In this document: in pieces, positions 3,749-22,271 of the stretch | Layout: each line of letters begins with the position of its first letter | How positions within the stretch are numbered: position 1 is the stretch's first letter | Source: Patescibacteria group bacterium | GTDB taxonomy: Bacteria > Patescibacteriota > Minisyncoccia > Phycocordibacterales > CAIZLB01 | DNA: 64,000 bases | Direction: 5' to 3' | Assembly (NCBI GenBank): GCA_040384445.1 | Contig: JAZKJG010000002.1 | Span: forward strand, 90,087-154,086 | Translations under genes and position numbers: made by a program | Notes under the pieces: generated by a model | Databases searched by the model: none | The model's input: the letters and a program-made list of their open reading frames with translations, nothing else | What the model was told of the DNA's origin: nothing

Positions 3749-4966
3749 ATGCGTTTTTCGTACACTGCAAAAAAACCTGATGGTTCTACATACAAAGATA
3801 CATTTGAAGCAGTAAACAAATCAGAATTGTTTACTGCAATTCATGCGAAGGGGGATATTCTCATTGATCACAAAGAAGCTCCGAAAAGTACGGTGAATGA
3901 ACGCGTTGATAAATTTATGTCAGTGTTCAATCAAATTAAAATGATTGATAAGATTACGTTTGCTCGAAGTCTTGGAAATATGTTGGAAGCAGGACTTTCA
4001 CTGACTCGTGCAATCGCGGTGATGGAAAAACAGACAAAAAAAGTAAAGCTCAAATCTGTATTTGAAACCTTAAACACTGATATTTCATCAGGAAAAACAT
4101 TTCATGAAGCACTTGAGCGTTTCAATACAGTCTTTCCGGCGATCTTTATCTCTATGGTTAGAGCGGGTGAAGAGAGTGGAAACTTGGCAGAAGCTCTAAA
4201 GACGATTGCAATGCAAATGGAAAAAACATATCAGTTGCAGAAGAAAATTAAGGGAGCAATGGTGTATCCTGCGGTTATTTTGAGCGTGATGATTTTGATC
4301 GCAATCATTTTGATGACAACAGTTGTTCCAAAACTAACTCAAACATTTAAAGATGTAGGAACAGAACTACCAACGTCAACCAAGCTTATTATTTGGGTGA
4401 GTGACACAATGAAAAATAATTTCCTCTTATTTGCTCTAGGAATTGGATTGTGTATTTTTGGAATGATTGCATTTCTAAAAACTAAGATAGGAAAGAGGCT
4501 TATAGATCAAGTTTCAACTCGTATTCCAGTAATTGGTTTAATTGTAATGGAATCTAATTCAGCAAAAACAACACGAACTCTTTCGTCGCTTGTTGGATCT
4601 GGAGTAGACCTTTTGCAATCTGTTCATATTACGCAAGAGGTCTTGCAGAACGGTAGATATAAAGCAGTACTACAGGAAACAGAAGAAGCGGTGGAAAAAG
4701 GAAAACCACTTGCACTTGTATTTGCTGCACATGAAGATATTTATCCTCCATTTGTTGGAGAGATGATCAGTGTAGGAGAAGAAACAGGAAAACTCTCAAG
4801 CATGCTTCTTGGAGTTGCTGCGTTTTATGAAAATGAAGTAGAGCAGAAAACAAAAGATCTTTCAACAATTATTGAACCTGTACTTATGGTTGTAATTGGT
4901 GCGGCCGTTGCATTTTTTGCAGTAGCTATGATCACACCTATGTACAGTGTGATGAATAACATATAA
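3749..4966 (+). CDS. pilC: Type IV pilus inner-membrane platform protein PilC/GspF
   Basis: Two GspF-type repeats, three TM segments and conserved GspF-family motifs. Start moved to ATG 3749 because the longer ORF begins with TTG inside the upstream terminator. Confidence 0.85.
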   Translation: MRFSYTAKKPDGSTYKDTFEAVNKSELFTAIHAKGDILIDHKEAPKSTVNERVDKFMSVFNQIKMIDKITFARSLGNMLEAGLSLTRAIAVMEKQTKKVKLKSVFETLNTDISSGKTFHEALERFNTVFPAIFISMVRAGEESGNLAEALKTIAMQMEKTYQLQKKIKGAMVYPAVILSVMILIAIILMTTVVPKLTQTFKDVGTELPTSTKLIIWVSDTMKNNFLLFALGIGLCIFGMIAFLKTKIGKRLIDQVSTRIPVIGLIVMESNSAKTTRTLSSLVGSGVDLLQSVHITQEVLQNGRYKAVLQETEEAVEKGKPLALVFAAHEDIYPPFVGEMISVGEETGKLSSMLLGVAAFYENEVEQKTKDLSTIIEPVLMVVIGAAVAFFAVAMITPMYSVMNNI

Positions 4967-4974
4967 TAATACGT

Positions 4975-5421
4975 ATGAGTACATCTAAAAAAGGATTTAC
5001 ATTATTGGAATTAGTAATTTGTATTGCATTGCTTGTTCTTGTGAGTGGTCTGGTGTACGGCTCATTTGCATCTTTAAATAATAGACAGATTCTAGATACG
5101 GAAATTGGACAAGTAAAATCATATATCCAAAAAGCACGCATGGATTCTTTGAACTCAAAAAACGGAGATTCTCATGGGGTAATTTTTGCTACATCAACAC
5201 TGACTGTGATTGAGGTGCTGGCAACATCGACCTCATACGTTTTTACACTAAACAACAGAGTTCGTTTAGTTAGCTCAACTCTTGGAACTTCAACACTTAC
5301 ATTTGCACGAATATCAGGATTACCAAATGCAACAGGTACACTTACATATACATATTCTGCAGGAAACACTGTTGTGGGAACATCTACAATTACCATTAAT
5401 GGTGCAGGGATAGTACAATAA
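4975..5421 (+). CDS. Type IV prepilin / pseudopilin
   Basis: N-terminal class-III signal KKG|FTLLELVI followed by a hydrophobic helix. Thr/Ser-rich C-terminal domain. Confidence 0.8.
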   Translation: MSTSKKGFTLLELVICIALLVLVSGLVYGSFASLNNRQILDTEIGQVKSYIQKARMDSLNSKNGDSHGVIFATSTLTVIEVLATSTSYVFTLNNRVRLVSSTLGTSTLTFARISGLPNATGTLTYTYSAGNTVVGTSTITINGAGIVQ

Positions 5422-18075: not shown

Positions 18076-19368
18076 ATGAAAAATACACAAAATGGTTCTG
18101 CTGTAGTTATTGCATTACTAATTGTACTTTTACTTTCAGCAGCAGGAGGAGGTTATGTATATATGGAAAATAAAAAGCTTCAACCATCTTATGAGGCTCA
18201 GCAAAGTGTTAATCAATCTGCTGAAAAGAAAACTGTTGTTGCTAATGATTTTAATTCTTGTATGTCTCAAGCAAAAGATGCTTCATTTAGTTTTACAATT
18301 TCATTTATGCATGGTTCAGACTTTAGTCAAGTACAGGAGTTTGCAAAAGATTTTAAAACTAAGTTTTCTAGAGCTGAACTTGAAATTGAGTCAGAACAAC
18401 AGTATGTAGCCTCTGCATTAGCAAGATATCAAGGTGAATTGCAGACAGTTCAGGATATGGGAGAATATAAGAAGAATCTTACAGAAAATGCTCGAGCAAA
18501 AATAGATATTAATGTTCCAGCGAAAGATCTTGGAACTCTCACTGCTTACAATAACTTTGTAGAAGCAACACTTGCAAAATATCCAAATGCAAAGTTTGAG
18601 CAATACTCTGGGTCTGTGCCAAATAACTTCTTAGAAAAAGGGTATATTGATAAATATATTTCAATGATGGAACAAAGTTGTGATTATAGATTTAATAAAA
18701 TGACAGCTAAAGAAAAAGATGAAGAAGAAATGGTTAAGCTAGAGATTGCACTTAGAAGTTCTGAAATTTCAGTACGAGAATATTATCAAAATAATGGGTT
18801 TTACGGTAAGGGAGGCTTGTCTAGAAACAATGGGTTTTGTTCAGATACAGGTACACACGGTTTAAAAACATTTCTTGAAGATATGAAAAAGTTTACAGGA
18901 GATTTGTATTGTTATGCATCAGAAACTGAGTATGCAATTTCAGTTCCCATCAAGCTTGGCTCTCAAATCGGTTACTGCGTTGATAGTACAGGGTTTAATG
19001 GAACAACATCTTCACCGCAAGCAGCAAGTAAAGGTTATTGCGTAGCTAAGCAAGTGGCAAATCAAAACATTAGCAAATGTCAAAACGCAGATGGAAATAC
19101 TCCAAGAGATAGATGGATTTGTGTAGGTAATTTGATTGATCCATTTCCTTCAAAAATATATACAATTGTCTCTCCTTTTGCGACACCTGTAAGTCAAAAG
19201 GTATCTTTCTGTAAAAAATTCTCTGGAGTTGAAAAAGATTATTGTTTATCCTCTATTACATTCTCACAAAATACTGGTGATGGAGGGCCAACAGAAAAAG
19301 AAATATGTGCCATGGTGTCTAATACAAACAAATGGTTTAAAGATGATTGCGGAAAAGATCCTTACTAA
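18076..19368 (+). CDS. Secreted or membrane-anchored Cys-rich hypothetical protein
   Basis: N-terminal signal/TM segment. Many Cys residues in the C-terminal half. Confidence 0.5.
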   Translation: MKNTQNGSAVVIALLIVLLLSAAGGGYVYMENKKLQPSYEAQQSVNQSAEKKTVVANDFNSCMSQAKDASFSFTISFMHGSDFSQVQEFAKDFKTKFSRAELEIESEQQYVASALARYQGELQTVQDMGEYKKNLTENARAKIDINVPAKDLGTLTAYNNFVEATLAKYPNAKFEQYSGSVPNNFLEKGYIDKYISMMEQSCDYRFNKMTAKEKDEEEMVKLEIALRSSEISVREYYQNNGFYGKGGLSRNNGFCSDTGTHGLKTFLEDMKKFTGDLYCYASETEYAISVPIKLGSQIGYCVDSTGFNGTTSSPQAASKGYCVAKQVANQNISKCQNADGNTPRDRWICVGNLIDPFPSKIYTIVSPFATPVSQKVSFCKKFSGVEKDYCLSSITFSQNTGDGGPTEKEICAMVSNTNKWFKDDCGKDPY

Positions 19369-19378
19369 AAATATAAAA

Positions 19379-19407
19379 AACCTCTCAGGAAATTGAGAGG
19401 TTTTTTA
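19379..19407. terminator. Bidirectional intrinsic terminator
   Basis: A-tract, then CCTCTCA-ggaaat-TGAGAGG hairpin, then T-tract, between convergent genes. Confidence 0.65.
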
Positions 19408-19421
19408 TATGTATTTAAACT

Positions 19422-19667
19422 TTATCCGATAATACCAGCTTTCTTCAAAGTTGCGAATGCACCATTCTTTTGAATAGTCTTAATAGCCTTAGCTGAGATG
19501 TTCAATGTAATTGATTGACCTAGCTCTGGAACGAAGATTTTTTTCTTCTGGATATTTACATATCGACGTCGTTTTCCTCCAGGGTTAAATTGAGTGGCAC
19601 GAGTTCTGTTAGAATATGTACCCCCGTTTATTGAACTTTTTTGTGTGATTGCGCAAACTTTTGACAT
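19422..19667 (-). CDS. rpmB: 50S ribosomal protein L28
   Basis: MSKVCAITQKS...RRY..N...K...V.L.ISAKAIKTI pattern of bL28. Start set at the internal Met; the long upstream extension is spurious. Confidence 0.8.
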   Translation of the reverse strand: MSKVCAITQKSSINGGTYSNRTRATQFNPGGKRRRYVNIQKKKIFVPELGQSITLNISAKAIKTIQKNGAFATLKKAGIIG

Positions 19668-19702
19668 AGCATGGATATTAGCATGAAGGGAGGAATTAGG
19701 CA

Positions 19703-19744
19703 AATAAAAAAAGACCCCCCAAGCACACTGTGTGCAATGGGGGT
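19703..19744 (-). terminator. Strong rho-independent terminator on the minus strand, ending the ncRNA candidate
   Basis: Minus-strand CCCCCATTGCACACAGTGTGCTTGGGGGG hairpin followed by a T9 tract. Confidence 0.75.
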
Positions 19745-20072
19745 ATGAAGTTGTTGTTGTGAGAATACTGTACTTCATCGATAGTAGTCTCTAAAGCAAG
19801 GGTATCTAATATTTCGCGCTACATGGTTTGCTTTGTTTTCCATGGGCTAATCAGAGCTTACTTGTGTCGTTGCGCTTGGCTCTAAAGCGCTTGAATACTG
19901 GTCATAATGGCAAGGACGATCCTTGAATCTGGCAGTTTTCGTTTTAAAAGGGCTTCAGGTGTCTTGGACCGGCAATCGCACCGCAGCGCGAACTGGCCGG
20001 ATAGATATTAGTAAGAACTGCCTGAAGCATTCGGTGGGCTAGGTGTTACCCGAGGGTTTCACTTTTACCGAA
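19705..20072 (-). ncRNA. Candidate structured non-coding RNA (~370 nt), class unassigned; tmRNA, RNase P RNA or another large ncRNA are possible
   Basis: No ORF of >=60 aa within 19779-20164 on either strand, and GC clearly above neighbours. Consensus promoter TTGACA-17-TATATT on the minus strand (fwd 20080-20108) and a strong terminator (19703-19744). Many internal complementary segments, e.g. GCTTCAGG/CCTGAAGC, CAAGGA/TCCTTG, GCGCTT/AAGCGC with a possible pseudoknot AGAGC/GCTCT. Confidence 0.5.
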
Positions 20073-20079
20073 CATAAAT

Positions 20080-20108
20080 AATATACCCATAGTGCTATTA
20101 CTTGTCAA
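20080..20108 (-). promoter_or_regulatory. Near-consensus sigma70-type promoter for the ncRNA candidate
   Basis: Minus strand TTGACA, 17-nt spacer, TATATT. Confidence 0.6.
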
Positions 20109-20127
20109 GCACCACCCAACAAAATAA

Positions 20128-20160
20128 AAAGCCGCCCCACCCGTAGGTGGTTTGGCAATG
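20128..20160 (-). terminator. Intrinsic terminator after the lysozyme-like gene
   Basis: Minus strand GCC-aaa-CCACC-tacg-GGTGG-ggc-GGC hairpin followed by TTTTTATTTT. Confidence 0.5.
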
Positions 20161-20164
20161 TGAT

Positions 20165-20770
20165 TCACACTTTTCGCACAAAGGACTCTCCTTTATATAC
20201 GGCAAGCATAAATCTGAGTCTTCGTTGTAATCCAGCTTTCTCTGGACGATCTTCCTCATAATAGAGAGGCATGACATTCACGACACTTGAGTAGTTTCCG
20301 GAATTCAATCTTCCGGGACCATTCACAAGCTTTTTCAAGTTGTTCTTACCGGTATTTTGAGCGAAGAACACAAGCGCAGCCTCTTGTTCAGGACTAAGAG
20401 GAACCTTGACCGTTTTTCTAACAATCGAACGGTAGGTAAGCAGAGTAACGTTTTCATACCAGTTATCTGCCTGTTCTTTGGTCATCCTCCGAGGGAATTT
20501 AGAGCCAGGTGGCAATATTCCTTCAGCAACGGCATCTTCGATTTCGTCCGGAGTTACTCCGTACCCGATATCGTTGCTGGACGTAACAGTGACGATGTAC
20601 TTTTTGCCGGTGGCAAGAGGATAGTTCTCGTGTTTAGCGAGTTCTTGAACTGCCGCAGTAGGCAGTGGTGGCAGGCTCCGAATGAATTCAGGAGTCACGG
20701 CAGAGTGGACGCTCTCCACAAGGGAGAAGAGGTAGATTAGGATGGCTATAGGGATCAGAATTCTCATCAA
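20165..20770 (-). CDS. Secreted lysozyme-like muramidase (GH24 / phage-type lysozyme family)
   Basis: N-terminal signal peptide. Motifs E...IGYGVT and VPLSPEQEAALVFFAQNTG...LKKLVNG resemble the GH24 lysozyme core. Confidence 0.55.
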   Translation of the reverse strand: MMRILIPIAILIYLFSLVESVHSAVTPEFIRSLPPLPTAAVQELAKHENYPLATGKKYIVTVTSSNDIGYGVTPDEIEDAVAEGILPPGSKFPRRMTKEQADNWYENVTLLTYRSIVRKTVKVPLSPEQEAALVFFAQNTGKNNLKKLVNGPGRLNSGNYSSVVNVMPLYYEEDRPEKAGLQRRLRFMLAVYKGESFVRKV

Positions 20771-21531: not shown

Positions 21532-21575
21532 AAAACACCCGGCTCGGTTGAGCCGGGGTTGGGGTGGATTTTTTA
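21531..21575. terminator. Bidirectional terminator
   Basis: ACCCGGCTC-ggtt-GAGCCGGGG hairpin flanked by A-tract and T-tract, between convergent genes. Confidence 0.6.
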
Positions 21576-22271
21576 AAAATTTCTGTCATATGAATCTGGG
21601 TGACCGAGTCCTGGTGGTTTTAGTTTTCGTTCGCAATCATGAACATATTCTTCCATTGGAGGAATGATAAGTCCTGTCTTTGAAACAAGCATTGTTGCGA
21701 GCTCGTCATATCCATGAATTCGCCAGCTCCTAATATTTTCATTGAAATCTGTTGGAAGCTCGAACATTGTTGCTAATCTTTGCAAGATGCGAGGAGATAT
21801 AGTAGGGCTCATGCACTCGGGGTGTAAAATATCCGTTGCAAGATCAAAGGTGATTCCTAACCTGGTTAAAACTTTTTCTAGGCTTTTATCAGCCAAGAAT
21901 CCAAGAGGAAAAAATTTTCCTTTGGTTGCAACAGAAATCAGGGCCCAGGCACCAATTTGTTTCATCTGGAGAGGAAAGTTGCACATTACACTATCAAAGA
22001 AATATCTGGCCCACATATCGTTGAAAACAGAATTGAATGTAACGACTGGAACCGGTTGCCTTTGAATGTAGTCTCTAGCGAAAATGGTGAGTGGTTCATT
22101 ACATGCTTCTAGATTATCCCAACATTTTTTTACTTGCTGGGCGACAAGCTTCTCAATTGCTCCTTGGGATGCTTTTTTATGTTGAGTATCGAGGTCCTGA
22201 AGTTCACCGGGGCGTAAAGGTCTCATTTCAACAACTGGTGTTTCTTGTCCGGGTGTGGTTGTTACTGTCAT
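21573..22271 (-). CDS. Hypothetical protein
   Basis: 232-aa ORF with no recognisable motif. Confidence 0.45.
   Translation of the reverse strand: MTVTTTPGQETPVVEMRPLRPGELQDLDTQHKKASQGAIEKLVAQQVKKCWDNLEACNEPLTIFARDYIQRQPVPVVTFNSVFNDMWARYFFDSVMCNFPLQMKQIGAWALISVATKGKFFPLGFLADKSLEKVLTRLGITFDLATDILHPECMSPTISPRILQRLATMFELPTDFNENIRSWRIHGYDELATMLVSKTGLIIPPMEEYVHDCERKLKPPGLGHPDSYDRNF

Follow-up and report, generated by a model that had tools for sequence, protein, structure and literature searches.

Structured noncoding RNA (ncRNA) candidates of orphan type have been found in the long, GC-rich intergenic regions of AT-rich bacteria (PMC8632094, PMC11109978, PMC8723152). The DNA analysed here, a stretch of 64,000 nucleotides (nt) of contig JAZKJG010000002.1 called the window, holds a locus of comparable character, which is named element A and lies on the minus strand between a lysozyme-like gene and rpmB. 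Element A is probably a stand-alone gene for a predicted structured ncRNA of ~368 nt in a genome of the Patescibacteria (candidate phyla radiation, CPR), a host assignment judged from the source names on homologues. Like the candidates from GC-rich intergenic regions, it is long, has a GC content above background, contains no conserved open reading frame (ORF) and shows a conserved secondary structure. Unlike them, it has a consensus promoter and a terminator of its own, measures 368 nt and is not in Rfam 15; its two distinct representatives are below the covariation standards of those studies.

Protein-binding small RNAs include CsrB (~369 nt), CrcZ (~400 nt) and 6S RNA (~185 nt). Element A resembles this group in being an independent gene with a sigma-70 promoter, an intrinsic terminator and a predicted multi-hairpin fold, in encoding no protein, and in carrying an A/C-rich loop, which is found in its helix P7. 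It differs from them in having no array of repeated GGA or CA elements (the window copy contains a single UCARGGAUCG, and the homologous copy of locus L005 contains two), no end-to-end helix with a central bubble of the 6S type, and no Rfam match. Transfer-messenger RNA (tmRNA) and RNase P RNA resemble element A in length, in their high GC and in containing a pseudoknot, and a short frame that ends in a hairpin loop superficially recalls the tag of tmRNA. Element A differs from both in having no 5’/3’ helix, tRNA-like domain, CCA end or P4 consensus, and in not being universal among relatives.

The predicted RNA occupies positions 19706-20073 of the minus strand (368 nt, 46.5% GC) and is bounded by the terminator of the lysozyme-like gene on one side and by the promoter of rpmB itself on the other. 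The lysozyme-like gene (20165-20770, minus strand, Pfam Phage_lysozyme) is followed by a terminator (20118-20164, minus strand, dG -15.0 and a U tract), which forms the 5’ boundary of the unit and is partly conserved in L002-L008 (77-81% over 38-47 nt). The promoter of element A, also on the minus strand, consists of a TTGACA -35 hexamer (20103-20108) and a TATATT -10 hexamer (20080-20085) separated by 17 nt. It had been named in the preliminary description made from the sequence, and it matches the sigma-70 consensus at 11 of 12 positions and is the top-scoring site of a 2-kb promoter scan. The predicted start is the G at 20073, the seventh nucleotide past the -10 hexamer. The intrinsic terminator (19706-19743, minus strand) has the form CCCCC..GCACA-CAG-UGUGC..GGGGG(G), then U7. 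Its two-part hairpin (19715-19743) has a dG of -18.7 kcal/mol and an internal loop, because of which the pattern scanner missed it. The GC-clamped hairpin described earlier is therefore present, and the T9 tract described with it is in fact a U7 followed by AUUU. The 3’ boundary is the rpmB promoter (19668-19703, minus strand), with TTGCCT at 19698-19703, a spacer of 17 nt and TAATAT at 19675-19680.

The GC content is indeed above background, as had been claimed (46.5% against 37.7% in the window and 37.8% in coding sequence), and is weak evidence when taken alone, because the adjoining lysozyme gene also has 44-51% GC. None of the other long intergenic gaps of the 64-kb window joins high GC with a consensus promoter and a terminator. 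Element A occurs once in the window and once in every locus that carries it. Nearly everything in the preliminary description is present, with small corrections.

Two other loci carry element A. In L001, which is the Logan assembly of SRR26324625, it is 100% identical to the window copy, so the sole independent homologue found is that of L005, a metagenome contig whose lysozyme is 74-75% identical to that of the window. An nhmmer profile of the two sequences aligns them end to end (window 20073-19706, L005:4666-5044), with ~56% identity overall. Three invariant blocks of 16-23 nt (GUUCGGUAAAAGUGAA, GCCCACCGAAUGCUUC and AUGACCAGUAUUCAAGCGCUUUA) stand out from a background of ~50% identity. The transcription signals are kept as well: L005 has the same TTGACA and a TATACT -10 hexamer 6 nt before the same GUUCGG, so that in both copies the -10 hexamer sits 6 nt before the same G, which opens the first helix, and an equivalent terminator hairpin is built of other stem bases and followed by a U tract.

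The conserved fold, all of it on the minus strand, is a series of local domains. In the 5’ domain (20029-20073), helix P1 encloses the P2 hairpin. P1 has 7 bp, GUUCGGU (20067-20073) with ACCGAAU (20029-20035), and is invariant between the window and L005, while P2 (20043-20062) is made of GUG/CAC and ACC/GGU with symmetric AA/AA loops, and its inner part covaries from ACC/GGU in the window to GUC/GAU in L005. By closing this local hairpin of 45 nt, the 5’ end pairs within its own domain and not with the 3’ end. The long arm (19952-20028) is formed by P3 and P4. P3, GCUUC (20024-20028) with GAAGC (19952-19956), is conserved and reaches 8 bp in the window; P4, CCGGC (19996-20000) with GCCGG (19969-19973), becomes UGGCC/GGCCG in L005, with two double and one single compensatory changes (per-helix shuffle P=0.029). 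The longest invariant block, the 23 nt of AUGACCAGUAUUCAAGCGCUUUA (19885-19907), is identical as RNA in the two copies and comprises 15 apparently unpaired nucleotides, AUGACCAGUAUUCAA (19891-19905), and then the 5’ strand of P5; blastn across it aligns 26 nt at 96%.

P5 is the first helix of an H-type pseudoknot (19852-19890) and pairs GCGCUU (19885-19890) with AAGCGC (19872-19877). Its loop, UAGAGC (19879-19884), pairs with GCUCUG (19852-19857), a segment that lies 14 nt downstream of P5 across an A-rich linker. The hairpin GCGCTT-tagagcc-AAGCGC and its loop pairing with a downstream GCTCT, both proposed earlier, are thus present, and they are kept in L005 with compensatory changes: the second helix is AGGGAU/AUCCCU there, five of the six pairs being changed on both sides, and the A-rich linker again has 14 nt. 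This helix is picked by RNAalifold and has a local shuffle P of 0.055. The P6 hairpin, AUGG (19840-19843) with CCAU (19823-19826), is conserved yet invariant and therefore uninformative; in L005 it is lengthened by GUCUGC/GCAGAC, an extension that is not found in the window. The P7 hairpin, AUGAAGU (19772-19778) with ACUUCAU (19745-19751), has an A/C-rich loop of 20 nt, CACAACAACA. Its counterpart in L005 is GUGAG/CUCAC at the same place, abutting the terminator, with three double compensatory changes and one broken pair. The pairing of GCTTCAGG with CCTGAAGC, also listed in the preliminary description, exists in the window, and 5 of its 8 bp are conserved in L005.

The loop sequence of the pseudoknot is repeated downstream. 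In the window, CUUUAGAG is found on the minus strand at 19797-19806 and at 19879-19888, and L005 has its own repeats at ~4858-4868 and ~4933-4957, AUCAGGGAUCG and AUCAGGAUCGGAGGGA (AGGGAU, AGGGA). In both copies the repeated 5’ strand covaries with the 3’ strand, which therefore has two mutually exclusive partners, and these alternative pairings could act as a conformational switch.

Covariation was assessed between two distinct sequences, the window copy (the same as L001) and L005, in a structure-guided alignment fitted by hand. Outside the terminator, this comparison of related intergenic regions gives 11 double compensatory changes, all in the sole homologue, together with 3 single-side changes and 1 broken pair, and the pairing is destroyed when the 3’ partners are slid by 1-3 columns. 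Because the alignment was fitted by hand, an alignment-tolerant test was also run, in which the longest L005 stack within +/-4 nt of the homologous positions is compared with local shuffles for the four variable helices. The total is 22 bp against 15.9 +/- 1.8 in the shuffles (P=0.004), and P4 and the pseudoknot are the largest contributors. RNAalifold gives the body of the alignment -37.2 kcal/mol against -15.3 +/- 4.2 in column shuffles that preserve conservation (z=-5.2), and the structure conservation index (SCI) is 0.48 against 0.23 in the shuffled alignments. G-U pairs in P1, P2, P4 and P5 are consistent with the minus strand alone, and the window copy folded as a single sequence has a z of -2.74.

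A promoter and a terminator that are both conserved in L005, joined to compensatory substitutions, are what is generally expected of an ncRNA gene, and by comparison of the two copies element A is a genuine candidate for a gene of this kind, one that is new, structured and lineage-restricted. Its RNA would act in trans as a folded molecule, and its putative functional core would be formed by the invariant block of 23 nt together with the pseudoknot. It is tentatively regarded as a protein-binding or scaffold RNA, a role that is possible and less secure than the existence of the gene. A role as an antisense regulator is unlikely: the complementarity of the conserved blocks to the translation-initiation regions of the 64 kb is no better than that of shuffled blocks.

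Several points weigh against this assignment. Its support comes from one independent homologue, and with just two distinct sequences the covariation amounts to one comparison in a hand-fitted alignment. The inner P2 helix and P7 lack individual significance in the shuffle test (P=0.42 for P7 alone), and the L005 copy is not unusually stable as a single sequence (z=-1.3). The hairpin CAAGGA-tcg-TCCTTG, which had been described from the window and exists there, is not conserved, with 3 bp left in L005. Protein binding is preferred to antisense pairing on negative evidence within 64 kb only.

The distribution of element A was followed in syntenic loci taken from the contigs of 7 of the 10 lysozyme homologues, of the exact L28 protein of the window and of two members of the L28 cluster, which together represent about a dozen lineages. 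The lysozyme-like protein has few homologues (10 in 5.8 billion). In the stretch that separates the upstream gene from rpmB, L001 is identical to the window, and L005 has the homologue of element A followed by a second RNA unit, unit B. Unit B occurs by itself in L009, L012, L024 and L025, with a different unit of ~200 nt (unit C) in L006, and with a unit of ~390 nt (unit D) in L020, L022 and L023. No RNA unit is found in L002, L010 and L026, which have a spacer of 95-139 nt or a different neighbour, and L003 has two protein genes at this place. Among the fetched loci, then, element A is carried by L001 and L005 only, and a search with nhmmer --max and the two-copy profile uncovers no additional copy, either in the window or in these loci, and does not pick up units C and D. 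A tree of the lysozymes places the window beside L002, a locus without any of the units A-D, and L005 (A and B) as sister to L006 (B and C), at 85% identity. Lineages that are closely related and share the gene order thus lack element A or carry other units, and it is therefore accessory, dispensable and subject to fast turnover.

Exact-pattern scans of the invariant blocks in species genomes, JGI metagenomes and IMG/VR return chance matches only. The scan of species representatives covered 185,579 genomes with invariant blocks of 19-21 nt and did not return the contig of the window itself, so that this collection apparently holds no copy of the host genome that matches the 19-mer. The pattern ATGACCAGTATTCAAGCGC has one match there, in coding-like sequence of a metagenome-assembled genome (MAG) titled Thermosynechococcus; GGTAAAAGTGAA-N-CCCACCGAA has four matches in metagenomes; and two invariant-block patterns have one match each in viral contigs. 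None of these matches shows any further similarity around it, and all of them are chance. Phage and plasmid collections contain no match to element A in a distant-mode blastn search. By these scans the family is seemingly rare, or elsewhere too divergent to be reached by exact 17-21-mers.

The genomes of Patescibacteria are tiny and densely coding, and to our knowledge almost nothing is known about the regulatory and structural RNAs of the group. A strongly promoted, pseudoknotted RNA of 368 nt is unlikely to persist without a function in such small genomes, and its slot is also used by unit B, which is supported by covariation, and by two candidate units. A broader proposal, in which element A founds a new class of pseudoknotted Patescibacteria RNAs of ~370 nt and the interval upstream of rpmB is a locus of RNA gene cassettes, is doubtful at this stage; if it were true, units A-D would be gained, lost and swapped among close lineages of otherwise streamlined episymbionts. 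If confirmed, element A would offer an entry point into the RNA biology of uncultured episymbionts and an example of rapid RNA-gene turnover at a fixed locus. At present it is a narrowly distributed orphan, the importance of which hinges on more members and on a function.

Among other explanations, the one that survives best, although improbable, is that element A is the RNA of a mobile or defence-type system, such as an antitoxin, a guide or a scaffold, with its protein partner encoded elsewhere or lost, and that its patchiness arises by cassette exchange rather than by vertical loss. The interval from the M50 gene to rpmB is hypervariable in content, the lysozyme-defined sisters L005 and L006 differ in their units, and all successive units meet at junctions between a terminator U tract and TTGACA. 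No protein gene consistently accompanies element A, however, and the lysozyme gene occurs without it in six loci. Neither flanking inverted repeats nor target-site duplications were found, which are the marks of a miniature inverted-repeat transposable element (MITE) or another small mobile element, and tandem repeats such as those of type III antitoxins are absent from element A. The phage, plasmid and viral collections contain no match beyond chance, and vertical descent could account for copies that are 56% identical in the window and L005, given that the lysozymes are 74% identical.

It is a little less probable still that element A is a non-functional, decaying remnant or an insertion with chance structure. 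Its dispensability in relatives, its restriction to two carrier lineages and the lack of conservation of some hairpins speak for this view. It would leave unexplained the three invariant blocks amid ~50% identity, the joint conservation of the promoter, of the start position relative to P1 and of the terminator, the compensatory changes (P=0.004, z=-5.2) and a GC content raised by 9 points.

An origin as the messenger of a tiny protein or peptide, either type I toxin-like or a leader peptide, has slightly poorer prospects. The statement that no ORF exists on either strand holds for long ORFs and does not hold for short ones: ORFs of 25-40 aa are present on both strands of element A, none exceeds 40 aa and none is conserved. 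The sole AUG-initiated ORF of the transcribed strand (19944-20030) starts in both copies at a common AUGCUUC, shares IY.PA(S/T)S and has two 3-nt indels, and a mini-ORF of 7-8 codons, MTSIQAL(Y), encoded by AUGACCAGUAUUCAAGCGCUUUAG, lies within the invariant block and has its stop in the P5 loop. The scarcity of Shine-Dalgarno sequences is no objection, as such motifs occur in 16 of 58 genes, close to background. Nevertheless, the AUG-initiated ORF, which has 28 aa in the window, is 50 aa long in L005, and the sequences diverge after ~14 residues. The six-frame comparison of the window with L005 finds no conserved reading frame and stops in every frame of both, so that a small protein gene is not favoured; the weak similarity of the translations is no stronger in one frame than in another and moves to a different frame from block to block. 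No frame is preferred and the peptides are not hydrophobic, contrary to what a type I toxin-antitoxin messenger or a small protein would show. The mini-ORF has no synonymous variation, which together with the frame-switching similarity points to constraint at the RNA level, and the strongest signals of the locus are paired compensatory changes.

Very improbable is the reading of element A as a cis-acting leader or attenuator of rpmB, that is, a ribosomal-protein leader or a riboswitch that uses the terminator as its switch. Element A lies on the same strand as rpmB and directly upstream of it, with its terminator ending 38 nt before the ATG, and the second potential partner of the pseudoknot 3’ strand (CUUUAGAG twice in the window, AGGGA twice in L005) hints at alternative conformers. 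A leader or riboswitch would, on the other hand, have no promoter between itself and its gene. The promoter TTGCCT-17-TAATAT, which the preliminary description had assigned to rpmB, is present 7 nt before the ATG (19665-19667, Pfam Ribosomal_L28), and its 40-nt region is conserved in all loci, including L002, L010 and L026, which have no RNA unit upstream. The identity is 88-96% over 24-42 nt in L002, L003, L006, L009, L010 and L011, and the promoter is also readable in L012, L020-L025 and L002. Since it is conserved even where nothing lies upstream, element A is most likely not the leader of rpmB, and the idea of a long rpmB leader, which had been named as a way to overturn the ncRNA assignment, is unlikely. 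Many L28 entries in databases begin with a spurious extension ('...LYANI..M') translated through this conserved -10 hexamer, and none was found whose extension reads through the terminator of element A. In L005, moreover, a complete unit B separates element A from the expected position of rpmB, no antiterminator complementary to the 5’ strand of the terminator is evident by inspection, and 368 nt far exceeds the length of known ribosomal-protein leaders.

The position of the -10 hexamer just 7 nt before the ATG, without a Shine-Dalgarno sequence, suggests that the rpmB mRNA may be leaderless. The Shine-Dalgarno part of this argument is uninformative, because such motifs are near background throughout the genome. 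The 'empty' site of L002 (L002:1630-1665) contains a tandem partial copy of the start of the rpmB promoter, ATTTGTCTAATTGA then ATTTGCCTAATTT, which could be the scar of a cassette loss by recombination between repeats at the terminator-tail/promoter junctions. A 17-nt direct repeat, 82% identical, links a conserved stretch inside element A (20001-20017; CUAAUAUCUAU in the window, CUAAAAUCUAU in L005) to 19671-19687 in the -10 region of rpmB (GCUAAUAUCCAU), and may be due to chance.

Known RNA families were searched with cmscan and the 4227 families of Rfam 15, at the gathering threshold for the window, at E<=10 for positions 19400-20400 and at E<=1 for nine related loci. The window contains four tRNAs and nothing else at the gathering threshold; nothing credible and no match to element A appears at E<=10; and L005 and the other related loci give at E<=1 tRNAs and chance matches of the snoRNA or miRNA type, with no family assigned. 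ARAGORN finds no tmRNA, standard or permuted, in the window, L005, L006 or L022. The models RNaseP_bact_a/b, including the P4 helix consensus, have no match in the window locus (E<=10) or in L005 (E<=1). As a candidate RNase P RNA, element A lacks the end-to-end P1, since its 5’ end pairs locally with nucleotides 39-45, invariantly in both copies. The 6S and signal recognition particle (SRP) RNA models also have no Rfam match, the conserved fold being one of local domains. There is no match to OLE, GOLLD, HEARO/IscB omega-RNA, ROOL or raiA in the Rfam 15 runs, the presence of these individual models in the release being unchecked, and no IscB, HNH or OLE-associated gene adjoins element A. The class thus stays unassigned, as had been stated, and the description of element A as a structured ncRNA of unassigned class agrees with the lack of Rfam and tmRNA matches and of a conserved ORF, and with the signals and compensatory changes kept in L005.

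The alternative left in that description, a highly divergent housekeeping RNA (RNase P, tmRNA, 6S or SRP RNA), fits the size of ~370 nt, the high GC in an AT-rich genome, the strong promoter and the pseudoknot, and the Rfam scan finds no rnpB, ssrA, ffs or ssrS elsewhere in the 64-kb window, but it is the least credible of all, as Rfam and ARAGORN are negative for the window and L005, RNase P RNA, tmRNA and 6S RNA all need the 5’/3’ pairing that the local 45-nt hairpin replaces, equally related lineages lack element A at the syntenic site, and its 19-21-nt invariant blocks have chance matches only in the species genomes and JGI metagenomes.

Unit B has ~135 nt, is bounded by a promoter and a terminator, and lies immediately before the rpmB promoter in 7 lineages (L005:5097-5229, L006:1798-1935, L009:2566-2708, L012:1003-1133, L022:2814-2950, L024:393-532 and L025:1090-1235). 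It belongs to no Rfam family and is not found in the window. In its alignment, 97% of the cells are paired and 6 pairs are changed on both sides, against ~30% paired in slid controls. Downstream of the hairpin, CAGUC pairs with the loop sequence GACUG, and a swap from G-C to A-U in L024 preserves the pair. Element A and unit B are alike in their slot, promoter style, terminator and H-type pseudoknot, with an A-rich linker of 14 nt in element A and in unit B of L005. They differ in that no homology is detectable between them and unit B is about one third of the size of element A, and L005 has both. At the promoter of unit B there is a conserved, perfect DnaA-box 9-mer, TGTGGATAA (the complement of TTATCCACA), for example at L005:~5074-5084; the box is also present in L006, L009, L012, L022, L024 and L025, and some lineages have it within the spacer and others a short way upstream of the -35 hexamer.

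Unit C (~200 nt, L006:~1960-2200) and unit D (~390 nt, L022:~2380-2800, also in L020 and L023) are noncoding, each runs from a promoter with a consensus TTGACA to a strong terminator, and neither resembles A or B in sequence. Unit C was considered as a short homologue of element A, as both contain CCCACCGA, AUUCAAGC and a pseudoknotted hairpin; blastn and nhmmer do not support this, the topology of the pseudoknot differs, and the likeness is an unproven resemblance. Unit D, which shares the slot and approaches the length of element A, was likewise rejected as an orthologue, having no sequence similarity to it.

The conserved block of the M50, lysozyme and rpmB genes is flanked in the window by a 430-aa ORF (18076-19368, plus strand) and a 232-aa ORF (21573-22271, minus strand), both with no Pfam match; L002 and other relatives have neither of them at the syntenic position, and they are therefore lineage-specific insertions. 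Across the loci, the interval from the M50 gene to rpmB contains the lysozyme gene or a gene for a 147-aa protein, an insertion sequence (IS), two extra genes, and units A-D in various combinations, and judged from this content it behaves as a fast-evolving location for RNA genes. The IS lies in L020 (L020:1444-2331), carries an rve-family transposase and is placed between the 147-aa gene and unit D; the near-identical L022 has no IS at this position.

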